Shown in pieces: positions 60 to 50,062 of a stretch of DNA of 64,000 bases (within the stretch, counting starts at the first letter, position 1; every line of letters begins with the position of its first letter). Location of the stretch: the NCBI RefSeq assembly GCF_013167455.1, contig NZ_CP038328.1. One strand, written 5' to 3'. Source of the stretch: Escherichia coli O157:H7 (GTDB taxonomy: Bacteria; Pseudomonadota; Gammaproteobacteria; Enterobacterales; Enterobacteriaceae). A program made the translations under genes and the position numbers. The notes under the pieces were generated by a model. The model worked only from the letters and a program-made list of their open reading frames with translations, searched no databases and was not told the origin of the DNA.

Positions 60-215
<156 letters not shown>

Positions 216-7455: not shown

Positions 7456-9284
7456 GTGATCAGTTTGACGCAAAAGCGTTTTTAAAAACCGTAACCAGCC
7501 AGCCTGGCGTTTATCGCATGTACGATGCTGGTGGTACGGTTATCTATGTCGGCAAAGCGAAAGACCTGAAAAAACGGCTTTCCAGCTATTTCCGTAGCAA
7601 CCTCGCTTCGCGCAAAACCGAAGCGCTGGTCGCCCAGATCCAGCAAATTGATGTAACGGTTACTCATACAGAAACCGAAGCGCTGTTGCTGGAACACAAC
7701 TACATCAAACTCTATCAGCCGCGTTACAACGTTTTGCTACGCGATGATAAATCATATCCTTTTATCTTCCTGAGTGGCGATACCCACCCGCGTCTGGCGA
7801 TGCATCGTGGTGCAAAGCATGCCAAAGGTGAATATTTCGGCCCGTTCCCGAATGGCTATGCCGTACGTGAAACACTGGCGCTACTGCAAAAGATTTTCCC
7901 CATTCGCCAGTGCGAAAATAGTGTTTATCGCAATCGCTCGCGTCCGTGTCTGCAATATCAGATAGGGCGCTGTCTGGGACCGTGCGTTGAAGGACTGGTG
8001 AGTGAAGAAGAATACGCTCAGCAGGTCGAGTATGTGCGCCTGTTTTTGTCTGGCAAAGATGATCAGGTGCTTACGCAACTCATTAGCCGTATGGAAACTG
8101 CCAGTCAGAATCTGGAGTTTGAAGAAGCGGCACGTATTCGCGACCAAATTCAGGCGGTGCGACGCGTCACCGAAAAACAATTCGTTTCCAATACCGGCGA
8201 CGACCTCGACGTTATTGGTGTGGCGTTCGATGCGGGTATGGCTTGTGTCCACGTATTGTTCATTCGTCAGGGCAAAGTGCTCGGCAGCCGCAGCTATTTC
8301 CCGAAAGTGCCTGGCGGTACGGAACTGAGCGAGGTGGTAGAAACCTTCGTAGGCCAGTTCTATTTACAAGGCAGCCAGATGCGCACCTTACCGGGTGAGA
8401 TCCTGCTCGATTTTAATCTTAGCGATAAAACGCTGCTCGCCGATTCCCTTTCAGAACTGGCGGGACGCAAGATTAATGTTCAAACCAAACCTCGTGGCGA
8501 TAGGGCGCGTTACCTGAAACTCGCGCGCACCAATGCGGCGACGGCCTTAACCAGCAAACTTTCGCAGCAATCTACCGTTCACCAGCGGCTTACAGCACTT
8601 GCCAGCGTGTTGAAATTGCCGGAAGTGAAGCGGATGGAGTGCTTTGACATCAGCCATACCATGGGTGAACAAACCGTCGCTTCCTGTGTGGTGTTTGATG
8701 CTAACGGCCCGCTGCGTGCGGAGTATCGGCGCTATAACATTACTGGCATCACGCCGGGCGATGATTATGCGGCGATGAATCAGGTGCTGCGTCGGCGTTA
8801 TGGTAAAGCCATCGACGACAGTAAGATCCCGGATGTGATACTTATCGACGGCGGCAAAGGCCAGCTTGCGCAGGCGAAAAATGTCTTCGCCGAACTGGAT
8901 GTCTCATGGGATAAAAATCATCCGCTGCTACTTGGTGTTGCCAAAGGAGCAGATCGTAAGGCTGGGCTGGAAACGCTGTTCTTTGAGCCGGAAGGTGAGG
9001 GATTCAGTTTGCCGCCAGATTCTCCCGCGCTGCATGTTATCCAGCATATTCGCGATGAATCACACGATCACGCGATTGGCGGGCACCGTAAAAAACGGGC
9101 GAAGGTCAAAAATACCAGTTCCCTGGAAACCATTGAAGGCGTCGGGCCAAAACGCCGGCAAATGTTGTTGAAATATATGGGCGGTTTGCAAGGTTTACGT
9201 AACGCCAGCGTCGAGGAAATTGCAAAAGTGCCGGGTATTTCGCAAGGTCTGGCAGAAAAGATCTTCTGGTCGTTGAAACATTGA
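7452..9284 (+). CDS. uvrC: excinuclease ABC subunit C
   Basis: 610 aa; GIY-YIG N-terminus ([22 protein letters not shown]), UvrC signature, C-terminal HhH. Confidence 0.95.
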
Positions 9285-10040: not shown

Positions 10041-10116
<76 letters not shown>

Positions 10117-10169
10117 GTTTAAAAGACATCGGCGTCAGCGGATGTCTGGCTGAAAGGCCTGAAGAATTT

Positions 10170-10243
10170 GGCGCGTTAACAAAGCGGTTATGTAGCGGAT
10201 TGCAAATCCGTCTAGTCCGGTTCGACTCCGGAACGCGCCTCCA
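10170..10243 (+). tRNA. cysT: tRNA-Cys (anticodon GCA)
   Basis: 74 nt ggcgcgttaacaaagcggttatgtagcggattGCAaatccg...ggttcgactccggaacgcgcctcca. Confidence 0.95.
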
Positions 10244-10255
10244 CTTTCTTCCCGA

Positions 10256-10342
10256 GCCCGGATGGTGGAATCGGTAGACACAAGGGATTTAAAATCCCTC
10301 GGCGTTCGCGCTGTGCGGGTTCAAGTCCCGCTCCGGGTACCA
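10256..10342 (+). tRNA. leuZ: tRNA-Leu (anticodon TAA), intact copy; prophage integration target
   Basis: 87 nt gcccggatggtggaatcggtagacacaagggattTAAaatccc...ggttcaagtcccgctccgggtacca, with long variable arm. Confidence 0.95.
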
Positions 10343-12400: not shown

Positions 12401-13291
12401 TCAGGCTGCCAGATCATCGTTTCCGATGGAAGCATAATAAGCTTTTTCTGCTTCTGCCGGAGGAGTATGGCCCAGCCTTCCCAGCAATCGTCGATTGTTA
12501 TACCAGTCCACCCACGTTAGTGTGGCCAGTTCCACTTCTGCACGGTTTTTCCAGCTCTTACGGTGTATTACCTCCGCTTTGTAAAGACCATTGATGCTCT
12601 CAGCCATCGCGTTGTCATACGAGTCGCCTGTACTCCCTGTTGATGCCAGTAATCCGGCTTCTTTTAGTCGCTCCGTATAGGCCAGTGACACATACTGAGA
12701 GCCTTTATCGCTGTGATGGATGGTGCCAGACGGACGACGGGCCCACAACGCCTGCTCCAGCGCATCCAGCACGAATGTCGTTTCCATAGACGATGAGACC
12801 CGCCACCCCACGATGTATCCGGCAAACACATCAATGATAAACGCCACATAGACGAAGCCCTGCCATGTGCTGACGTAAGTAAAATCAGCCACCCACAGCT
12901 GGTCAGGTCGTTCTGCCACGAACTGACGGTTTACGCGGTCGCCTGCGGCAACGGCTTTCCGGCTGATGGTCGTACGGACCTTTTTACCCCGGAGAACACC
13001 GGCAAGTCCCATAACCGCCATGAGACGTGCCACTGTACATCTGGCCACCCTGATTCCTTCCCGTAACAACTGACGCCAGACTTTACGCACACCGTACACC
13101 TGATGATTTTCATCGTATACGCGCTGTATCTCTCTCTTCAGCCAGTCGTCGTGCTGCGCACGGGCACTGCGTTTATCCGGATGATGTCGCTGTTGCTGAC
13201 AATGGTAATACGTTGACGGGGCAATATGCAGTTCGCTGCATACCGGTCCGACCCCGTACTGCTCACGCAGCTTATCCAGCAGTGGCATCAT
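12401..13291 (-). CDS. IS3-family transposase OrfB (DDE integrase domain)
   Basis: 296 aa, [16 protein letters not shown]...; rve-type catalytic domain recognised. Confidence 0.85.
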
Positions 13292-13614
13292 TTTTTCCAG
13301 AGGCGGTCGAACTCCGCCTTCGCAAAATAAGCGGAAGCCTGGCGAAGGATATCGTTACTGCGGCGCAGTTCACGATTTTCACGTTCCAGCTCTTTCAGAC
13401 GCTGACGTTCAGCGCTGGTGAGCCCACCATCACCGCCCCCGGTATCCCGCTCATGCTGGCGAACCCAGACACGCAGAGTCTCCGGCGTACAGCCAATCTT
13501 TGGGGCAATGGAACAAATTGCCGCCCACTGTGAGTCATATTCATCCTGACTTTCCAGAACCATACGAATCGCCCGCTGACGGACTTCGGGGGAAAAACGA
13601 GTATTTTTAGTCAT
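13288..13614 (-). CDS. IS3-family transposase OrfA (HTH / leucine zipper)
   Basis: 108 aa, [22 protein letters not shown]...; overlaps orfB as expected for a -1 frameshift fusion. Confidence 0.85.
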
Positions 13615-19513: not shown

Positions 19514-19930
19514 TTATTGTGGGGCGACTGGCCACTCAACATCCGCTGCTACTGTTGTATCAACACGATTCAACAATACCCGATATGTCTTCCATGCAGC
19601 CAGTAACGATGCCTCTTCCTCCGTCGCAATATCCAAATCTACGGCATCCTGAAGTGGCGCAATATGCTCACTGGCTACCTGCATCAGGCTGTTTTTTGTT
19701 TCTTCTGCCTCCCGTACCCGAAACAGTTTTTCTGCTTCTGCATCTTTCGCCCAGGATGTGCCGTTCCACTTCTGACACTCTCCATCCGGCGACAACCAGG
19801 TAACATTTTCCGGTAACGGACCGAGTTCAGAAATAAATAACGCGTCGCCGGAAGCCACGTCATAAACCGTTTTACCCCGATGATCTTCAACGAGATGCCA
19901 CGATGCCTCATTACTGTTGAAAACAGCCAC
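19514..19930 (-). CDS. tail fibre assembly protein (Tfa family), 5'-truncated; the reading frame continues upstream to 20046 without a start
   Basis: C-terminal Tfa region recognised; the upstream frame 19931-20046 translates [38 protein letters not shown] and runs into IS629 copy 2. Confidence 0.75.
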
Positions 19931-20046: not shown

Positions 20047-21104
20047 TGAACCGCCCCGGGAATCCTGGAGACTAAACTCCCTGAGAAAGAGGTAAACAGG
20101 ATGACTAAAAATACACGTTTTTCCCCCGAGGTCCGTCAACGGGCAGTCCGTATGGTTCTGGAAAGTCAGGGCGAATATGACTCACAATGGGCGGCAATTT
20201 GTTCCATTGCCCCAAAGATTGGCTGTACACCAGAGACTCTGCGTGTGTGGGTTCGTCAGCATGAGCGGGATACCGGGGGCGGTGATGGTGGACTCACCAC
20301 CGCTGAACGTCAGCGTCTGAAAGAGCTGGAACGTGAAAATCGTGAACTGCGCCGCAGTAACGATATCCTTCGCCAGGCTTCCGCTTATTTTGCGAAGGCG
20401 GAGTTCGACCGCCTCTGGAAAAAATAATGCCGCTGCTGGATAAGCTGCGTGAGCAGTACGGGGTCGGACCGGTATGCAGTGAACTGCATATTGCCCCGTC
20501 AACGGATTACCACTGTCAGCAACAGCGACATCATCCGGATAAACGCAGTGCCCGTGCGCAGCGCGATGACTGGCTGAAGAGAGAGATACAGCGCGTATAC
20601 GATGAAAATCATCAGGTGTACGGTGTGCGTAAAGTCTGGCGCCAGTTGTTACGCGAAGGTATCAGGGTGGCCAGATGTACAGTGGCGCGCCTCATGGCGG
20701 TTATGGGACTTGCCGGTGTTCTCCGGGGTAAAAAGGTCCGTACTACCGTCAGCCGGAAAGCCGTTTCCGCAGGCGACCGCGTAAACCGTCAGTTCGTGGC
20801 AGAACGTCCTGACCAGCTGTGGGTGGCTGATTTTACTTACGTCAGCACATGGCAGGGCTTCGTCTATGTGGCGTTCATCATTGATGTGTTTTCCGGATGT
20901 ATCGTGGGGTGGCGAGTCTCATCGTCTATGGAAACGACATTCGTGCTGGATGCACTGGAGCAGGCGTTGTGGGCCCGTCGGCCGTCCGGCACAGTCCATC
21001 ACAGTGATAAAGGTTCTCAGTATGTATCACTGGCCTATACGGAGCGACTAAAAGAAGCAAAACTGCTGGCATCAACAGGGAGTACAGGTGACTCGTATGA
21101 CAAT
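20047..21104 (+). mobile_element. IS3-family IS629-like element, copy 2, 3'-truncated (~1058 of ~1310 bp), inverted relative to copy 1
   Basis: Left IR TGAACCGCCCCGGGAATCCTGGAG at 20047; similarity to copy 1 stops after ...gactcgtatgacaa (~21104). Confidence 0.85.
20101..20427 (+). CDS. IS3-family transposase OrfA
   Basis: 108 aa, nearly identical to copy 1 OrfA (a few substitutions). Confidence 0.85.
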
Positions 21105-21135: not shown

Positions 21136-21450
21136 TTATTCTGGGAATAAGGTCTGAATATTCTTTTTTATTTTATAAAAATTGCATTCAACTCCGCTAG
21201 GCTGATTAGCCTGGTATGTTTCCTTGATGCTAACGGTATTGAAGGGGAGGTTGTCCTCTGGCCATTCGGCCATCCAGTAGGCAAATGCTGGGTTGCGCTT
21301 TATGAGTGCTAGCCCAGCCAGAAAGGCCGCGCGTTGCGCGCGGCTGCGTTCGGAGGCTGGCAGGCTATCGAGGTAATTGCACGCCTCCTGTTCACTCTTG
21401 ACGGCGGCGGGCTTCAGATAGAAACTTATCCGTCTGGTTGGTGTCGTCAT
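21136..21450 (-). CDS. ParR/StbB-like centromere-binding adaptor of a type II partition system
   Basis: 104 aa; RRISFYLKP...LDSLPASERSRAQRAAFLAGLALIKRNP resembles plasmid R1 ParR (recalled from memory). Confidence 0.65.
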   Translation of the reverse strand: MTTPTRRISFYLKPAAVKSEQEACNYLDSLPASERSRAQRAAFLAGLALIKRNPAFAYWMAEWPEDNLPFNTVSIKETYQANQPSGVECNFYKIKKNIQTLFPE

Positions 21451-21454
21451 TGGT

Positions 21455-22414
21455 TTACTCCTTGTTCATTGCGTACAACCCATTAACCAGAGCAAACTGT
21501 GGCACCCCGTCCGCGATGAAAGTCGCATTAACTCCGCAGGCTTCGCGGATAGCGGTTGCCACAATCTCCGCCCCGCCACCGACAACCATCACCCGCCCGT
21601 AACCCGAAAAAACCGCCAGCGCGCGGATCACGCGTTGTTTCAGTGTTTCTTCCTTTTCACGAATAACCGCCATCAGGCTGGCGTAATGCGCGTCATTGTG
21701 GATGTGCTGGCGCAGCCAGGCTTCATCATGGCGATGTTCGATAATGGTATTGGCGATGTGGTGACTGGTGCGCATACCGTTAGTGGCCATCACCGACAGT
21801 ACGGCATCGGCCATCAGAGAAACGCCTACGTGTGGATCGCAAAACACCTGGCTGATACCTGCCAGTTGCCCCTGAACCTTTGCCACATCCAGCGTGGTTC
21901 CGCCCAAATCCACAATCAGCAGGGATTCAAACGGACTCATGTCAGCCAGTGCCTTAAAGCCAGCAGGAATGGATTCAGGCATAACCCGTACGTTACGGAT
22001 AGTGAATGCTTCGCCGTTCTGGTACTCCACCGGGCGCATGACGTTCGCTTTTTTGCGGTTGATGTTGGCCATGTCCGGCTGTGCGTTTGTATCGAAATAC
22101 TCGCTCAGTGGCAGGGTGACAACCACATCCACTTCCTGTGGTGTGATGCCTGATTTGACCAGCGCGTGATGAATGGCAATTACATTCACATCGCTGTACT
22201 GGTATTGCGTGTCGGTCGTCTGGACAAAGCGATCGCTGACCGGATCAAAACCATAGCGCACGCCATCAAGCATGTAGTTCGCGGGCTGCGTGCCACCGAA
22301 TGGCGCAGACCATTCCGACTTGAAGCTGTTCGGGCTGATGGCGTTGCGGCGTTCGCCGTTCTCAGTCCATGCCAGCTTGATGTTGGTGGAGCCGTCGTCG
22401 ATACAAATTTTCAT
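21455..22414 (-). CDS. ParM/StbA-like actin-family partition ATPase
   Basis: 319 aa; actin-fold motifs IDDGSTNIK (phosphate 1), LIVDLGGTTLD (phosphate 2), VMVVGGGA (adenosine). Confidence 0.75.
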   Translation of the reverse strand: MKICIDDGSTNIKLAWTENGERRNAISPNSFKSEWSAPFGGTQPANYMLDGVRYGFDPVSDRFVQTTDTQYQYSDVNVIAIHHALVKSGITPQEVDVVVTLPLSEYFDTNAQPDMANINRKKANVMRPVEYQNGEAFTIRNVRVMPESIPAGFKALADMSPFESLLIVDLGGTTLDVAKVQGQLAGISQVFCDPHVGVSLMADAVLSVMATNGMRTSHHIANTIIEHRHDEAWLRQHIHNDAHYASLMAVIREKEETLKQRVIRALAVFSGYGRVMVVGGGAEIVATAIREACGVNATFIADGVPQFALVNGLYAMNKE

Positions 22415-22450: not shown

Positions 22451-22560
22451 AGGATTTTTAAATCCCGCTTTTGCCTGTTTTGTGCGCGCTTCATATATCG
22501 CGGCGCGTTTTTTGCTCATTTACGGGATTTGTGAGTCCCGTTTCTGTCTGTTTTTTGTTT
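22451..22560. repeat. two copies of a ~35 bp repeat, each containing a GGATTT..AAATCC-type palindrome; candidate parC-like centromere or operator
   Basis: aggatttttaaatcccgcttttgcctgttttg (22451-22485) and cgggatttgtgagtcccgtttctgtctgttttttg (22525-22560), directly upstream of the parM-like gene. Confidence 0.4.
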
Positions 22561-25313
22561 CCACTGGTCAGGCCACCCCGCAGCAGGTCTGCTTTGCGGC
22601 TGGCGCGTTCAGTGGTTTCACTGATTCTCTGTGCGTGCTCTGCGTCGCGGATGGCGCGCAGCATGTCAGAAAGCACGGTAACGGGTGTTTTCATGGTGTT
22701 CTGGTCCTGCTGAAGTGTGGATGCCAGGCGTGCGGCGGCTTCAGGGTCTGATGCCCCCAGCTGTGCCAGATAGCTGGCGACCGGGTTATGGCGGATCTCC
22801 GTGCTGCTTACGCCATGATTACGGCTCAGGCGCTGCCAGAGCTGCGTGATTCGGCTGTCCGGGCGGGTATCCGGTTTGCGTACAATTTCAAATCCCTGCG
22901 GTGCAATGATGCTGCCGTCAACGTACAGACTGCCGCCCCGTAACAGGTGCTGCATCTGTTGTTCACCGATATGCAGGCCGAGAGATTCAGCAGACTCCCG
23001 CCATTCTTTAGCGAGTAATTCGTGGTTATCAGGCAAAGGCCGCTGCTGTTTGCGGCTCTGTGTCCAGCTCTGCATTTCATCACTGCTGTTTTTTGCCTGT
23101 TTGTCACGAAGCGAACGCATCAGCGCCCGGCGTTCGTGCCGTTTCAGTGAGCGCATCCATTCGTTCACGTCAACGCCGTCAGGAAGCTGCGGCCACGGTG
23201 CTGGCCGTTCTTCCGGCTGTTCTGTCCCGTTGTTGTCCGTTTCCTGTACACGGGGACAGTTATTGCCACGAGTCCAAGGGGCGGCAGGGCCGCCCTGAAG
23301 GTCAAAACCATTTTCGCGGGCGCTGTCTTCTACTCCCGGTTTACGTCTTACCAGCTTCCAGTTATCCGGGTGCGTGCACACACGGGAGGATTCCCCGATG
23401 AGTGGTGACCAGATCCCGTAAATCTGTACGCTCTGTTCGCCGTAATCGTTCAGCTCATCTGCGAGGTCGTAGGCGGTGCGAATCAGGTAGTCCTTGCGTG
23501 GAACAAGTACGCCTCCCTGTTTCTCAATGTAGGTGGTAAAACATCCGGCATCAGCGGCAGCAAGAACCGCATCCATTGCGTCATCCTTCAGCCGTTGCGG
23601 GCCTTCCGGGTTGCGTGCCATCTGGCTGGCAAGGCGACGCAGTTCACGCCACACCTGACGGGAGGGGATGCCAAAGAACTGGAACTGGCGGACCCGGTGA
23701 AGGCGCGCCCAGCCAATGGCGCGTTCCACGCTCTCGGTCATTGATTTTCCGGTTTCGTGGTCAACGCGTGGTTTGCCTGTTTTCGGGTCGATGCCATCCA
23801 CGGCGCGGCTGTCCAGGTTTTTTCCGATGTAGGTGGCGATGTAGCTGGTTGGCGTGCCTTTTGAGCCGTCGACATACTCCGCCTTAAAGCGCGGAGTAAT
23901 ATCATCGCCCAGCTCGTGACGATCTTCCTGAATGGCAATATCGCGGGTGTGGGACACAATGGTGTCGATTTCTTCCGGATGAGCAAAGACCATCATATGC
24001 CAGTGCACGGTGCCGTCATGGTGAGGCTCCACCGTGCGGATGCCATACCAGCGCAGGCCGTCGCGGTTCAGTTTCTTGCGGACCGCCGCAAAAAACGTGT
24101 TAACCAGGTAATCGCTGGAGTCGCGCATGGTGGCCCCGTTCCATTTGGGATTCGGATGACCGTTCTCTGTTGTAGCGTGGTATTTTGACGGGCAGGTGAC
24201 AGTCAGAAACACCGCTTTGTCGCCACGGGCTTCGGCCAGAAGTTCCAGCCCCTTCATGGTGGCCATCATTTCTGCCTTACGGTGAACCGGGTTACTTACT
24301 CCCGCGTAATACACTGTCTCGAGATCAATCGTGAACCCGTCTTCGTTTTCCAGCATGAAACTTTTCAGGAAATCGCGTGTTTTCTCGCGCTGTGCGCGAA
24401 ACTCGCTTAACGCGTCCTGGCTCAGATAGGGCGATGTTTTTCTGGAAACCAGACAGGCGGCGCGGAGTTGTTCTTCTCTCCACTCGCAACGTAACAGCCA
24501 CAGTTTGCGTTTCCACCATTCCGCACAGGTCAGGCGAAGGATTGCGCCCGGCAGCAGCTCCGTGTCCGGTTCGTTCCTCCGGTCTTTGTCTGTTGTCAGT
24601 GCGTCATAATGTGGAGGCATGGCGTGCAGGTGTAACGCCATGCGGGCCAGCATCTGATACGCCTTCAGCGTTACATCCATGGTCAGTTCGCCATCGGTCG
24701 CGCCAAAGCCATCGCAGAGTTTTTCGAAGGTGCTGCTGAACATCGCCGCCGTCATGGTGGCCAGCGTCTGTATCTGGTGTTTGTTGAGCTGCGGCAGGTA
24801 AAGCAAATCGTCCAGGCGTTCGCGTCCGGCAAGGGAGCGATAACCCTGTGTCAGCCAGCGGTGATCGGTGCGCTCCAGACGTTCGAATATTTTGCGCAGG
24901 TTTCCGCGCGCGTAGCGTTCAGCCTGCCAGCTCTTTTTGCCTTTCTGACGATCGGCTTCCTGTTTTTTGCGCAGGAAGGAGAGGTGGCGAATAAGCGGAT
25001 CGCGCAGATAGGACGGCAGCAGGCGCAGCGAGGCCATGGCTTCATCCACCGCACCGCGTGCCTGTTTTCTGGCGTCTCCTGCCAGTGTGATGGTTTTGTC
25101 CTGTTTTTCCTGTGCGTCCAGGCTTTTATTAATCAGGTTGCCCAGCGGCGTTGCGGAGAACGCCGCATCAGCCATTTCCTGGCGGCGCTCGTTCTCTACC
25201 CGGTAGGCATCCAGCCAGGAGGAAAGCGCGGATTCAGGAGCGGGGATCCCCGTTCCTTCACGCCCCACTGCGTGGCGCGGTTGTTGCCAGTCCCTGATGT
25301 ACTCTGCCGTCAT
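22491..25313 (-). CDS. rolling-circle replication initiator endonuclease, P2 GpA-like
   Basis: 940 aa; HxH-type motif (GTVHWHMMVFAHP) and YIATYIGKN tyrosine region typical of the GpA family. Confidence 0.8.
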   Translation of the reverse strand: MTAEYIRDWQQPRHAVGREGTGIPAPESALSSWLDAYRVENERRQEMADAAFSATPLGNLINKSLDAQEKQDKTITLAGDARKQARGAVDEAMASLRLLPSYLRDPLIRHLSFLRKKQEADRQKGKKSWQAERYARGNLRKIFERLERTDHRWLTQGYRSLAGRERLDDLLYLPQLNKHQIQTLATMTAAMFSSTFEKLCDGFGATDGELTMDVTLKAYQMLARMALHLHAMPPHYDALTTDKDRRNEPDTELLPGAILRLTCAEWWKRKLWLLRCEWREEQLRAACLVSRKTSPYLSQDALSEFRAQREKTRDFLKSFMLENEDGFTIDLETVYYAGVSNPVHRKAEMMATMKGLELLAEARGDKAVFLTVTCPSKYHATTENGHPNPKWNGATMRDSSDYLVNTFFAAVRKKLNRDGLRWYGIRTVEPHHDGTVHWHMMVFAHPEEIDTIVSHTRDIAIQEDRHELGDDITPRFKAEYVDGSKGTPTSYIATYIGKNLDSRAVDGIDPKTGKPRVDHETGKSMTESVERAIGWARLHRVRQFQFFGIPSRQVWRELRRLASQMARNPEGPQRLKDDAMDAVLAAADAGCFTTYIEKQGGVLVPRKDYLIRTAYDLADELNDYGEQSVQIYGIWSPLIGESSRVCTHPDNWKLVRRKPGVEDSARENGFDLQGGPAAPWTRGNNCPRVQETDNNGTEQPEERPAPWPQLPDGVDVNEWMRSLKRHERRALMRSLRDKQAKNSSDEMQSWTQSRKQQRPLPDNHELLAKEWRESAESLGLHIGEQQMQHLLRGGSLYVDGSIIAPQGFEIVRKPDTRPDSRITQLWQRLSRNHGVSSTEIRHNPVASYLAQLGASDPEAAARLASTLQQDQNTMKTPVTVLSDMLRAIRDAEHAQRISETTERASRKADLLRGGLTSGNKKQTETGLTNPVNEQKTRRDI

Positions 25314-25319
25314 AGTGAT

Positions 25320-25685
25320 TTACTTCGTCATGCCATTCAGGGTGTCGCGGCAGGCTGTAGCCAGCCGCTGAATTTCCAGCACGGTGTCTTCTGTGTCGGC
25401 ATGGCGATGTGTGATGCGGATGCTGTCGGCAATCACATCGACGATTGCAGAGGATGGGCGCTGGTAAATGCCAATAACGGACGGGGTGCCACCTTCAATG
25501 CGGTAAAGCCTGTAATTTCCCTCGTGGCTGTCAATCATGTAGCGACCATCAATAACAATCTTTCCGTCAGCGAGCTGCGGTACAGGCAGGGATTTCAGGT
25601 ACATGTCATAACGATCACGCACGCGAGCGGCAAGATCACGTTCTGTGTTGAGCAGGTATTCAAGAAAGTCGTTGGCGAGAATCAT
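25320..25685 (-). CDS. hypothetical prophage early protein
   Basis: 121-aa ORF ending 6 nt before the gpA start; same strand. Confidence 0.5.
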   Translation of the reverse strand: MILANDFLEYLLNTERDLAARVRDRYDMYLKSLPVPQLADGKIVIDGRYMIDSHEGNYRLYRIEGGTPSVIGIYQRPSSAIVDVIADSIRITHRHADTEDTVLEIQRLATACRDTLNGMTK

Positions 25686-25757
25686 TGCGGCAATCCTCTT
25701 GTTACAGATGTGCGAAGGCCTCCCGCCGCAAGGTGCAGGAAAGGCCCGGAACAGGAA

Positions 25758-25988
25758 TTAATGGAGTTTGTTTTGCTGCTGGATGAGCTGTTGAAACTCG
25801 TGCAGATCATCCGCCAGATAGCTGAAAACAGAGGCGGAATAAATGTTTGATAGTGCGTGGCTGCGCTCATGCAGCATATTGATGTGCATGATTTGCGCGA
25901 CGCGTGATGCGCGGGAAAGTCTGCGGTTGATTTCAGTCTGGATGTGACGACGCTCCGCGATAGCGCGGTGCTGTTTGCGGTCTGCCAT
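25758..25988 (-). CDS. hypothetical prophage early protein
   Basis: 76-aa ORF in the early operon. Confidence 0.4.
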   Translation of the reverse strand: MADRKQHRAIAERRHIQTEINRRLSRASRVAQIMHINMLHERSHALSNIYSASVFSYLADDLHEFQQLIQQQNKLH

Positions 25989-26310
25989 GGTGTGGCCTCT
26001 TTGCTCGGTGATAGAAATAACTCACCATCCAGAGTTGAGAATCTCGGGGTGGCGAGACGTACAGGGTTCTCAACACCGGAGAGCAAAGAATCCGGCCCGA
26101 CCGAAGTCGGCCCCGTACGCCCCGCCATAATTCTGACGCGAAAAAGACGTGGCAATACAGTACGCACAAAAAAACCGCTAGCGCGGTTATGCGCTTTGCT
26201 CTGTATCGGGTTGAGAATCCCGGCACCCGTTTTATGAGGTGCAGCGGAAATGTAACCTGACCGATTGCGGCATGGCAAGCGGTTTTTTTGTGTGTGCATG
26301 TTCTGGTTTC

Positions 26311-26610
26311 TTACTGGTTCAGAAAAAAATCAAAAACGTTATCGATGCGTTGCAGCAGCTCTTGCTGCATTGCTTCCGGCGTTTCCGGTTCGCCAGGTGC
26401 CCCCAGCGTTGCGCAGAAATCAGCGATTTCATGATGGAGCGTGAGGCGAATGGCAGGAGCCGTGGTTCTGGCGTGCTCCAGCTGATCCAGCAGTGCCAGC
26501 ACAGCAGACGGCGAGAGCATTGCGCGAAATGCCAGTAATTTTTGAGGCGTTGCCATTCGTTGCAGGGCAAATGCCAGTTCGCGTAGCTTCTGGTGGTTGA
26601 TGGTGCTCAT
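26311..26610 (-). CDS. hypothetical prophage early protein
   Basis: 99 aa; start overlaps the upstream stop (translational coupling). Confidence 0.5.
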   Translation of the reverse strand: MSTINHQKLRELAFALQRMATPQKLLAFRAMLSPSAVLALLDQLEHARTTAPAIRLTLHHEIADFCATLGAPGEPETPEAMQQELLQRIDNVFDFFLNQ

Positions 26611-26873
26611 GCTCTGGCTTCCTTCAGTAGCTGGTTAAACATGTGAGTAAGTGGATTGCTACACCCGAACGGCATCGGGTTTACGTGGTAAGAAGCCTGG
26701 CCTCCTGTTTTGCGAGCGCGACCACCTGTGCTGCGGTTTGTTCTGATGACTAAGCCGCCGCGCCAAAGTCGGCGTAACTCAGCATTAATGGCTGTGGTTG
26801 GGGTATTCAGTGCTGCGGCGATCTCTCCGCCGCTACACCCCGGATGAGTAGCGATGTAGTCCAGAATGGTCAT
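26607..26873 (-). CDS. hypothetical small protein, possible winged-helix DNA-binding
   Basis: 88 aa; coupled to its neighbours by 4-nt overlaps. Confidence 0.45.
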   Translation of the reverse strand: MTILDYIATHPGCSGGEIAAALNTPTTAINAELRRLWRGGLVIRTNRSTGGRARKTGGQASYHVNPMPFGCSNPLTHMFNQLLKEARA

Positions 26874-27073
26874 CTGCGTGGCTCCTGTACCTGTCGGATA
26901 AGATTTACTCGCGCCACGTTGGTGGCGCAGAAGTAAGTGCCGTCAGTGAGGTAGATGTGGTGTGCATCCTTTTCCGAACGATGTTTGTCGATAGTGGTAA
27001 TCAGGCGTTCGTCGACCTCGTATTCGCGCCCTCTGGAGGTAAAGCGAACGACGGGAAAATGCTTAATTGCCAT
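26870..27073 (-). CDS. hypothetical prophage early protein
   Basis: 67-aa ORF, translationally coupled. Confidence 0.45.
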   Translation of the reverse strand: MAIKHFPVVRFTSRGREYEVDERLITTIDKHRSEKDAHHIYLTDGTYFCATNVARVNLIRQVQEPRR

Positions 27074-27096
27074 TGCGCCCCCTTTGTCCAGTAACC

Positions 27097-27513
27097 CTAT
27101 GCGTTAAATACGGCACGTTGCGCGTCATCAATGAATACAGCTTGAGAGCGTTCTATCAGGCGGAGATTTGTCAGAAGCTCTGACTCTTTTGTGTGGTAAG
27201 GCGTTATCAGGTATTTGCCGTGCAGTTCGGCAATAATGGTGTATTGCAGCATCATTGCTGAACCAAGAATATAAATGCAGCGTCCAATGCTGGACGGATT
27301 CATGGCTGCAACTGTTGACTGTGTTTTAAGAGTGTCGATTTCTTTGCTCTGTTCCTCAATAACTTTGGCTGCTTCAGGGGTGGCTATTGCGATGGTCAGT
27401 GCGTAAAGCGCTGCCATATGTTGATTATCTTTCTGGGCTGCCCTGGACAGCTTGTCTTGCTCTGCTGACACTATTTTTAATGTATTGATAATATTTTTTT
27501 CTTTTGCGTTCAT
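27097..27513 (-). CDS. hypothetical prophage early protein
   Basis: 138-aa ORF with a consistent coding strand. Confidence 0.5.
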   Translation of the reverse strand: MNAKEKNIINTLKIVSAEQDKLSRAAQKDNQHMAALYALTIAIATPEAAKVIEEQSKEIDTLKTQSTVAAMNPSSIGRCIYILGSAMMLQYTIIAELHGKYLITPYHTKESELLTNLRLIERSQAVFIDDAQRAVFNA

Positions 27514-27605
27514 TTTATATCTCCGTTATTTACGTGTGCGAATACCTCCGCGAATGCGGATAGTTTTCAGGTTTTCGGGTTTAATCTGGTGTTCTGTTTA
27601 AGCTG

Positions 27606-27719
27606 TTATTTGTCAGTGAAAAAGCGTTCAATCTTTTTTACTGAATGAATAATTCGCATAATCCCAATGGCGCAGGCCACCGAAATAATCAGAACAAGCC
27701 ATGAGATAAATATACTCAT
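27606..27719 (-). CDS. 37-aa single-pass membrane peptide (MSIFISWLVLIISVACAIGIMRIIHSVKKIERFFTDK)
   Basis: Translated by hand; not in the ORF track (below its size cutoff). Its ATG overlaps the upstream stop as ATGA at 27716-27719. Confidence 0.45.
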   Translation of the reverse strand: MSIFISWLVLIISVACAIGIMRIIHSVKKIERFFTDK

Positions 27720-27958
27720 GCGATATTCCCCAGCTTATATGGTTCAATGTGTTCCCCGCATTCTGCGGCACAGATCAGCTCGGAAAGTTCGTTAAGTGCA
27801 TCCAGATCATCAGCGTAAAAAGCAACGTCATACAAACTCCGGATTGCCCTGGTCAATGAGTCACGGGCTGCACGTTCAGCATGAGCGCCTGATGCACTTA
27901 AGCGAAAATAAAATCGTTCAGGTGCTTTGTTAATGAGAGTTTTATATTCTTTGCCCAT
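27716..27958 (-). CDS. hypothetical 80-aa protein coupled to the downstream membrane peptide
   Basis: ORF in the early operon; acidic C-terminus. Confidence 0.45.
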   Translation of the reverse strand: MGKEYKTLINKAPERFYFRLSASGAHAERAARDSLTRAIRSLYDVAFYADDLDALNELSELICAAECGEHIEPYKLGNIA

Positions 27959-27969
27959 CGCAACGCCCT

Positions 27970-28308
27970 TTAATCTGCTTTCTGAATTTCAGCTTCTGAA
28001 TCCATACAAATAATTTCGATATAGGGTTCATCGCCATTAACCTGACGAGCCTTTTCAGCTTCGCTAATGATTTCTCGTACGGTCTGGTACGGAAGCTCCA
28101 CAGTCAGGCGCGTACCGTTCAGATAAACGTAAGTAGCTGCGTTTTTTTCGGATGGAACAATTCCGTCAATGGCTGATGCGCGTAATAACAGTTCACCGCG
28201 AAAATCAATAAAACGGATAAATACACCTTGTGCATGCTCTTTGGTCATAAAGCACCTGTTATAAATCAGCCTGTTTAATAAAACTTTGCCCGCGAAGCAG
28301 ACGATCAA
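27970..28308 (-). CDS. hypothetical prophage early protein (likely start at the internal ATG at 28248)
   Basis: 112-aa ORF; the upstream 20 codons overlap the preceding gene, so a start at MTKEHAQG is more plausible. Confidence 0.4.
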   Translation of the reverse strand: MIVCFAGKVLLNRLIYNRCFMTKEHAQGVFIRFIDFRGELLLRASAIDGIVPSEKNAATYVYLNGTRLTVELPYQTVREIISEAEKARQVNGDEPYIEIICMDSEAEIQKAD

Positions 28309-29132: not shown

Positions 29133-29537
29133 ATGAAAAATGATATTGGTCGGCGGTTGCGTGAGGAAAGGGAAAGATTGGGACTTAGTCAAGTTGCCAT
29201 GAGCGACATTGGTGGAGTCAAAAAGCTAACTCAGCTTAGATATGAGAAAGGAGATAGCTTTCCTGATGCTGCGTATTTGGCAGCGCTGTCTCGTTTTGGC
29301 CTTGATGTTCAGTATGTTGTGTTGGGAATTCACTCACCTGAAACTTATAACGATGATGAGCAGGAATTGATTACTCGCTTTCGAGCAGCTTCGTTAGATG
29401 TGAAAAACGCGGTGATTGGGGCTTTAAAAGGTGCGATCAGTGAAAAGGAAACTCAGCCATCAGGACGTGAGTTAAATATTTCTGGTGGTAATAACCGTAT
29501 CGCTGGTCGTGACTATAACGAAACTAAGGGTAGGTGA
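29133..29537 (+). CDS. prophage repressor, HTH XRE family (C/CI-like)
   Basis: 134 aa; N-terminal HTH (LREERERLGLSQVAMSDIGGVKKLTQLRYEKG); divergent from the Cox-like gene; upstream of int. Confidence 0.75.
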   Translation: MKNDIGRRLREERERLGLSQVAMSDIGGVKKLTQLRYEKGDSFPDAAYLAALSRFGLDVQYVVLGIHSPETYNDDEQELITRFRAASLDVKNAVIGALKGAISEKETQPSGRELNISGGNNRIAGRDYNETKGR

Positions 29538-49951: not shown

Positions 49952-49978
49952 TTCTCCTGATTTCCTCAATTGAAATGA

Positions 49979-50009
49979 ACCCGATGATCTGCGCATCGGG
50001 TTTTATTTC
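49979..50009 (+). terminator. rho-independent terminator after cheW
   Basis: cccgatgatctgcgcatcggg hairpin followed by TTTTATTT. Confidence 0.6.
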
Positions 50010-50035
50010 AATTTCGCGGCGGGTGGCATCAGCAA

Positions 50036-50062
50036 TAAAGTTTCCCCCTTCCTTGCCGATAA
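50036..50062 (+). promoter_or_regulatory. sigma-28 promoter of the tar-tap-cheRBYZ operon (TAAAGTTT-N11-GCCGATAA)
   Basis: Perfect match to the sigma-28 consensus ~30 nt upstream of tar. Confidence 0.75.

Follow-up and report, generated by a model that had tools for sequence, protein, structure and literature searches.

The interval 25989-26310 of the window (the whole 64-kb stretch of Escherichia coli O157:H7 DNA that was analysed) encodes, with a probability that we put at about 0.8, an RNA immunity switch of the P4/P1/Gifsy-1 type on the minus strand. The most likely function of this switch is that of an RNA-based immunity or induction gate on an epsilon-like anti-repressor and on replication. 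The interval is the exact gap between two minus-strand open reading frames, 25758..25988 (76 aa) and 26311..26610 (99 aa), both of which belong to the early operon of a prophage. The features on which the argument rests are the following.

26249..26278, minus strand: sigma-70-like putative promoter, TTGCCA-18-TACATT, matching the consensus at 9 of 12 positions
26168..26242, minus strand: IsrK/seqA-like leader RNA, about 75 nt (Rfam RF01394)
26217..26210, minus strand: target a1, UUCUCAAC, in the loop of IsrK hairpin 2
26202..26194, minus strand: target b1, AGAGCAAAG, within the IsrK-like RNA
26045..26132, minus strand: C4/CI-type antisense RNA (Rfam RF01695)
26094-26113: GC hairpin, ggcccgaccgaagtcggccc
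26088..26080, minus strand: segment b', CUUUGCUCU, in the loop of C4 hairpin 2
26074..26067, minus strand: segment a', GUUGAGAA, in the single-stranded joint of C4
26067-26074: inverted partner of the direct repeat, TTCTCAAC
26034-26047 and 26210-26223: the two copies of the direct repeat, GTTGAGAATCTCGG and GTTGAGAATCCCGG
26034..26041, minus strand: downstream target a2, UUCUCAAC, complementary to a'
26006..25999, minus strand: downstream target b2, GAGCAAAG, complementary to b' (site 25996..26006)
25758..25988, minus strand: 76-aa homologue of the P4 epsilon helper derepression protein (Pfam PF25738, BLASTP, RefSeq)
25685..25320, minus strand: 121-aa protein, phrog_3237, function unknown
25313..22491, minus strand: gpA-type replication endonuclease (nickase), 940 aa (PHROG 91)

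Both RNAs were recognized by their Rfam models over the full model length. The isrK model (RF01394, positions 1-77 of 77) matches 26242..26168 on the minus strand with 63 bits against a gathering score of 50, and the C4 model (RF01695, positions 1-87 of 87) matches 26132..26045 on the same strand with 78.5 bits against a gathering score of 45. The IsrK-like RNA folds into hairpin 1, hairpin 2 and an intrinsic terminator with a stem at 26188..26173 followed by a U-run, so that the fold and the terminator scan together give the two 5' hairpins and the terminator hairpin that characterize the family. The minus-strand terminator proposed earlier from the letters alone is this IsrK terminator. Members of the isrK family have their own promoter directly upstream and bind Hfq. 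Here, the putative promoter would start transcription near 26242, where the isrK model has its first position. Its match to the consensus is no better than 9/12, and neither hexamer varies among 44 distinct homologues, including those with unrelated sequence further upstream. In Stx phages a near-consensus promoter sequence, TTGACT-17-TATATT, lies at the same distance from the isrK start.

Two further elements lie close to these sites. A plus-strand terminator-like hairpin with a T-run (CCGATTGCGGCATGGCAAGCGG-TTTTTTT, 26262-26295) overlaps the -35 region of the IsrK-like promoter. It repeats the IsrK terminator region (26162-26182) in inverted orientation, with 90% complementarity over 21 nt. 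The conserved module starts at this hairpin, at about 26292, and since homologues carry unrelated sequence upstream of that position the site resembles a junction formed by recombination. Another promoter-like site, TTGCCA-17-AATTAT (26127-26155, minus strand), has a -10 hexamer that overlaps the 5' end of C4; it would start inside C4 and may be due to chance or be a remnant.

The C4 RNA is built as a 17-bp outer stem around two hairpins, the first of which is the GC hairpin. Folded alone, its minimum free energy structure is identical to the Rfam structure (-47.6 kcal/mol, z = -4.9), and in 39 distinct aligned rows pairing is 100% at each of the 27 stem pairs, 4 of which have changed on both sides. 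In the C4 family the mature RNA is cut from a longer precursor by RNase P and other enzymes and acts in trans. The two recognition segments of the RNA, b' and a', each have a complementary copy in the IsrK-like leader and another one between C4 and the 76-aa gene. Target a2 lies just past C4 and corresponds to the first half of P4 seqC. Target b2 runs into a Shine-Dalgarno sequence, AAGAGG (to 25996), and the epsilon-like gene has its AUG 7 nt past the end of this sequence.

This anatomy explains the repeats. A 14-mer, GTTGAGAATCYCGG, is present twice, at 26034-26047 and 26210-26223 with a spacing of 176 nt, and no other copies exist in the 64 kb when one mismatch is allowed. Shuffled sequences gave an expectation of 0.05 copies, and two or more copies were found in none of 100 shuffles. 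The sequence-only reading had seen these direct repeats but placed them at 26036 and 26208, each 2 nt off, and gave their spacing as 172 bp. It was right about the inverted partner, which it located near 26072, and about the GC hairpin. The repeat copies contain the targets a1 and a2, and the inverted partner corresponds to a', the segment of C4 that is left single-stranded. A second set of elements had escaped notice, as had the RNA families and the connection to the epsilon-like gene downstream. This set consists of two minus-strand copies of GAGCAAAG, at 26201..26194 and 26006..25999, and of their complement, which sits in the C4 hairpin loop at 26088..26081.

The pairing could be examined by comparing homologues, a check that had been suggested along with the first observations. 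The 80 IMG/VR loci that encode this epsilon-like protein, all from P88-like phages, represent 44 distinct versions, and the RNA module is present in 80/80 loci. The versions are 84-100% identical, and the segments a1, b1, b', a', a2 and b2 account for nearly all of the variation. Recognition segments were extracted by an nhmmer-anchored method. The 44 versions show 19 distinct six-segment combinations and 11 C4 specificities, the latter built from 5 a-types and 9 b-types that reassort, and in each version all three copies of a segment match. The segments ACUGCGAA and CUUGUGUAG are an example of another specificity type.

Pairs were counted on alignment A2, which has 39 distinct rows for the stem pairs. 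Helix a1:a' has 8 pairs, 4 of them with changes on both sides; b1:b' has 9 pairs, 6 with changes on both sides, and is 100% paired; a':a2 has 8 pairs, 4 changed on both sides; and b':b2 has 9 pairs, 5 changed on both sides. One-sided changes are absent from each of these helices, so that the a and b helices combined contain 19/34 pairs with both-side changes and 0/34 with one-sided changes. In the structure with the upstream sites 98.5% of the cells are paired, against 36-45% when the segments are slid, and the covariation score is 0.31 against 0.03-0.07. For the structure with the downstream sites the corresponding values are 97.7% against 39-46% and 0.29 against 0.03-0.08. The observed covariation score was reached by none of 500 shuffles, both in the upstream and in the downstream test. 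In all four interactions the cognate duplex is favoured over non-cognate ones by 7-8 kcal/mol, for example -10.2 versus -3.4 kcal/mol for a':a2 and -14.0 versus -6.2 kcal/mol for b':b2. The compensatory variation in the 44 homologues confirms that the repeat and its inverted partner pair as RNA, and it is direct comparative evidence that these sites of RNA-RNA pairing encode a specificity. The possibility that O157 genomes contain a second copy of a1/b1 acting as a decoy in trans was discarded, because the 39-nt a1-b1 segment, carried by 499 genomes, occurs a median of once per genome.

The same data bear on the other functions that had been suggested for the interval. A small regulatory RNA was among them, and this suggestion is borne out by the isrK and C4 matches above their gathering scores. 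The alternative suggestions, a repeated protein-binding site or a replication or packaging site, would make the interval a signal at the DNA level. The existence of direct and inverted repeats is the sole point in favour of such a signal. It is the complementarity that is conserved and not the sequence, and since RNA pairing accounts fully for the repeats these readings are left unsupported. Moreover, the nick site of the P2 origin is annotated inside gene A, and repeat analysis revealed no repeat family typical of iterons. We therefore regard a DNA-level signal as extremely unlikely. A retron msr/msd had already been considered and dismissed by the sequence-only reading, rightly so: Rfam gives no retron-type match in 24500-28000 (E up to 10), and the annotated intact prophage contains no reverse transcriptase.

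The statement that no plausible open reading frame covers the interval is essentially correct, although mechanical reading frames do span the gap: a minus-strand frame of 205 aa and a frame of 97 aa on either strand. RefSeq annotates no CDS in 25989-26310 of O157:H7. A protein-coding interval, either for an 'Ash family protein' or for a 148-codon frame starting from an AUG at the 5' end of C4, should nevertheless be considered. In some genomes PGAP labels a CDS or pseudo-feature here as 'ash family protein', and the 205-aa frame has a weak match to Pfam Phage_ASH (E 0.0068). However, the Pfam Ash model also matches the obsolete 'cI' ORF of P4 that lies over the CI RNA, whereas the P4 immunity factor is the CI RNA itself, processed from an untranslated transcript (PMC3632133, PMC4825925). 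The 148-codon frame is open in 80/84 loci and its end overlaps the start of the next gene, the one for the 121-aa protein, in the sequence ATGA, and Gifsy-1 has a short orf45 downstream of isrK, the translation of which is needed for anrP expression. Against this, the frame is broken in 3 specificity classes and overlaps the epsilon homologue out of frame, and the substitutions somewhat favour the epsilon frame (synonymous/non-synonymous 111/171 versus 78/204). The variation of the interval is compensatory between distant segments and lacks codon periodicity, which is the pattern of an RNA and not of a protein. Together these points make a coding function very unlikely.

Some observations on these frames and labels can be added. 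The 148-codon frame occupies 25682-26127 on the minus strand and starts at a conserved AUG; judged from the Rfam geometry, this AUG at the C4 5' end may be the equivalent of the orf45 start in Gifsy-1. The PGAP labels 'ash family protein' and 'similar to ash family protein' fall on the IsrK and C4 RNA genes (26039-26299, minus strand). The obsolete P4 'cI' ORF (8168-8584, minus strand in P4) matches Phage_ASH with an E value of 8e-16. The Phage_ASH family may be largely a translation of conserved RNA.

The genes that follow the RNA module indicate what it could control. The 76-aa protein matches Pfam PF25738 (Derepression) with E 1.3e-7 and P4 epsilon by BLASTP with 32% identity over 50 aa (E 6e-9), and RefSeq names the product 'derepression protein'. 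We propose that its gene is the first to be controlled by the RNA module. For the 940-aa protein the match is to PHROG 91, 'nicking at origin of replication', with E 1.4e-274, in agreement with the RefSeq annotation. For the intervening 121-aa protein Pfam, NCBIfam and PHROG provided no function; homology to P4 orf151 or orf106 was considered and was not found in the comparison. In view of the polarity known from P1 and P4, the 121-aa gene and gpA (22491..25685) would also be under control of the module. Directly downstream of the replicase are genes for a ParM-like segregation ATPase and a small 'plasmid partitioning/stability' protein (21136-22414, minus strand), an arrangement common to this P2-type prophage and P88, which hints at a plasmid-like maintenance option.

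In the mechanism that we propose, the promoter at 26278..26249 would produce a short IsrK/seqA-like RNA that ends at the intrinsic terminator near 26168. Transcripts that read through this terminator, as well as those from the early promoter, would extend into the C4/CI-like RNA (26132..26045). The C4 RNA would then expose b' and a', each able to pair with a site in the IsrK leader (b1, a1) and with a site upstream of the epsilon-like gene (b2, a2). Pairing with a2 and b2 would mask the ribosome-binding site of the epsilon-like anti-repressor gene. This pairing could occur in trans, by a processed C4 as in P1 and P4, or in cis, between parts of one read-through transcript. With the epsilon-like gene untranslated, polarity, presumably by Rho-dependent termination as in P1 and P4, would silence the 121-aa gene and gene A. 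The a1 and b1 sites on an abundant short IsrK-like RNA would compete for the same C4 segments, and because of this competition the IsrK-like RNA could relieve the block, as is the case for IsrK of Gifsy-1; the direction of its effect here is inferred from that system. Through these steps the module would gate prophage derepression and replication and set an RNA-encoded immunity specificity. The presence of an intrinsic terminator in the middle of the operon means that expression of gene A requires read-through or antitermination; phage 186 also has terminators within its early operon.

This scheme leaves room for a narrower one, in which the interval is purely a cis-acting leader or attenuator of the early operon that produces no stable trans-acting C4 and has no immunity function. 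The complementary segments would then form alternative structures within a single transcript and so set read-through and translation of the epsilon-like gene. It agrees with this that in the minimum free energy fold of the 273-nt leader b' and a' are base-paired in cis to a2, b2 and the Shine-Dalgarno sequence, and that the Gifsy-1 study emphasises alternative structures of the read-through transcript. However, P1, P4, lambdoid and P88-like elements all keep the C4 fold and its long outer stem, with high scores, and the same fold is a processed, stable and trans-acting RNA in P1 and P4 (PMC3632133). Furthermore, the many reassorting specificity types are what selection on a trans-acting immunity predicts, whereas a switch that works only in cis needs none. 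An exclusively cis-acting role is for these reasons considered unlikely, and the immunity switch remains the preferred reading.

A close parallel to that switch is found in P4. Its immunity region has the order PLE - seqA - CI RNA/seqB - seqC - kil/eta - epsilon - orf151 - alpha, and in P4-type elements pairing of CI with seqA and seqC leads to premature Rho-dependent termination. The same Rfam models find in P4 an isrK match of 60.8 bits (seqA) and a C4 match of 74.9 bits (CI RNA) upstream of epsilon. The two systems thus share the order of the elements on one strand, with an isrK-like seqA and its terminator followed by a C4-like CI, and in both there are two RNA recognition segments, each with a complementary upstream and downstream copy, a downstream b site that overlaps a Shine-Dalgarno sequence, and an epsilon homologue and a replication gene further downstream. 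They also share combinatorial diversity of specificity: the P4-like satellites from IMG/VR, 56 loci in all, carry at least 17 combinations of CI segments, nearly all with matching seqA and seqC. Their a and b parts reassort as well, and combinatorial RNA immunity types therefore appear to be general in the family.

There are also differences from P4. The host element is no P4-like satellite, as defined by an alpha primase, sid/delta/psu and the lack of structural genes, but a phage of the P2 and helper type that encodes a repressor, an integrase and structural proteins of its own. The epsilon-like gene, the product of which is only 32% identical to P4 epsilon, lies directly after the target site, 57 nt past C4, where P4 has the kil/eta ORFs. 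The replicase is gpA, a rolling-circle nickase, and not the alpha primase-helicase, and the module is located in the middle of the early operon. The recognition sequences, although equally complementary, bear no relation to the P4 ones, and none of the types occurs in the P4-like elements that were sampled. Cross-immunity between helper and satellite is accordingly not supported in this sample, with 0 of the 11 P88-like types occurring among the 17 types of the 56 P4-like loci.

Gifsy-1 offers a second parallel, with an isrK family RNA that has its own promoter and a leaky terminator, and a C4-like downstream region that is complementary to IsrK and controls a gene of the anti-repressor type (PMC4825925). 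The authors of that study likened IsrK to P4 seqA and STnc1160 to CI. They demonstrated activation by IsrK in trans (PMC4825925). The net effect in P4 is immunity, and the IsrK-like RNA of the window could act in either direction. The context of Gifsy-1 is lambdoid, and its AnrP/Rha-type anti-repressor is reached via the short orf45 by translational coupling, while here the epsilon homologue itself would be controlled, with its own Shine-Dalgarno sequence as the predicted target. Over the RNA part, lambdoid Stx phages with the Gifsy-1 layout share about 71% identity with the window. They carry the same module, with specificities of their own, ahead of genes for Rha-family proteins or anti-repressors. 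The two Stx-phage types examined differ from the type in the window, and of the P88-like segments a single a' type, but none of the b' types, recurs in a lambdoid phage.

The immI regions of P1 and P7 (c4 - icd - ant; also found in N15) have an antisense RNA of the same C4 family, RF01695 (PMC3632133). There too a' and b' pair with a1/b1 upstream and a2/b2 downstream, b2 is located at the ribosome-binding site of the first downstream gene, an anti-repressor is controlled, and heteroimmunity arises from compensatory changes in the segments and their targets. The processed c4 RNAs of P1 and P7, like the CI RNA of P4, pair with the downstream site and block translation of the first ORF, which results in Rho-dependent termination before the anti-repressor or replication genes (PMC3632133, PMC4825925). 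The upstream target in the window is of the isrK type and not of the P1 type, for which the Rfam model c4-a1b1 (RF03163) gives 15.9 bits against a gathering score of 46.7. Instead of Icd and Ant, for which the downstream proteins gave no family match, the epsilon homologue, the 121-aa protein and gpA follow. The early regions of P2 and 186 contain neither isrK nor C4 in the Rfam comparison, while P88 has both.

The prophage that hosts the module is of the P2 type, lies beside yecA in E. coli O157:H7 and carries an integrase, a repressor (29133..29537) and gpA, to which intact copies add portal, terminase and capsid genes. A 381-bp region with the module is 100% identical in many O157:H7 chromosomes and has matches in 1180 of 5426 complete E. 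coli genomes; the closest phage relatives are the P88-like phages (Xuanwuvirus), with 87% identity over the whole region. We identify the prophage by yecA with Sp13 of strain Sakai, since the published description has Sp13 as the sole P2-like prophage and mentions a P4 epsilon-like gene in it (PMC2669165). Sp13 is inducible by mitomycin C despite having a repressor without a peptidase motif, and its epsilon-like gene was proposed as the cause of this induction (PMC2669165). Direct SOS control was considered and rejected, because a LexA box (CTGT-N8-ACAG) is absent from the regulatory region of the prophage; the window contains only two matches, at 23244 and 45617, where chance predicts 0.7.

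The copy of the module in the window sits in a prophage that is disrupted by IS elements. Rfam finds two ALIL pseudoknots, the frameshift signal of the IS3 family, and an IS009 RNA (13217-13333, minus strand; 19551-19749, minus strand; 20382-20498, plus strand). The IS copies are just past the ParM-like genes, where the prophage of strain PV15-279 continues with portal, terminase and capsid genes, and this placement fits Sp13 being a truncated, IS-disrupted prophage. The other Rfam matches in the window (10041-10339, plus strand; 49971-50046, minus strand; 114-155, minus strand) are three tRNA genes, the C0465 sRNA and ES036. The tRNA genes are at the far end of the prophage, and the ES036 match is borderline (38.0 bits against a gathering score of 37.6).

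Part of this picture was available before. An Rfam-based annotation of EDL933 already includes C4 and isrK (PMC5331693), and the principle of C4/CI antisense immunity with an IsrK/seqA leader is well established, so that the gain is incremental. In the searchable literature, including comparative genomics of P2-like phages, we found no description of a C4/IsrK module in P2-type, helper-type phages, no account of such a module directly before an epsilon homologue and gpA, and none of the set of specificity types. For annotation, a region that is left blank in RefSeq O157 genomes or mislabelled 'ash family protein' holds two RNA genes. The P4-style RNA immunity module extends beyond satellites, P1-like plasmids and lambdoid phages, and a concrete, testable regulator can now be offered for the epsilon-like gene of Sp13 and of the P88-like prophages, which are present in about one fifth of the complete E. 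coli genomes.

The module may also explain how mitomycin C induces a P2-type prophage of which the repressor is not cleaved in the SOS response (PMC2669165). It is conceivable, at somewhat less than even odds, that in P88-like phages including Sp13 the IsrK/C4 pair serves as the phage's own induction gate, acting via an endogenous epsilon-type anti-repressor against the non-cleavable C-type repressor. If so, the inducibility of Sp13 by mitomycin C would be accounted for. The reassorting a and b segments would then form a two-part RNA immunity 'barcode' that diversifies independently of the protein repressor, and a helper-type phage would be using a regulatory logic described so far for its satellite.
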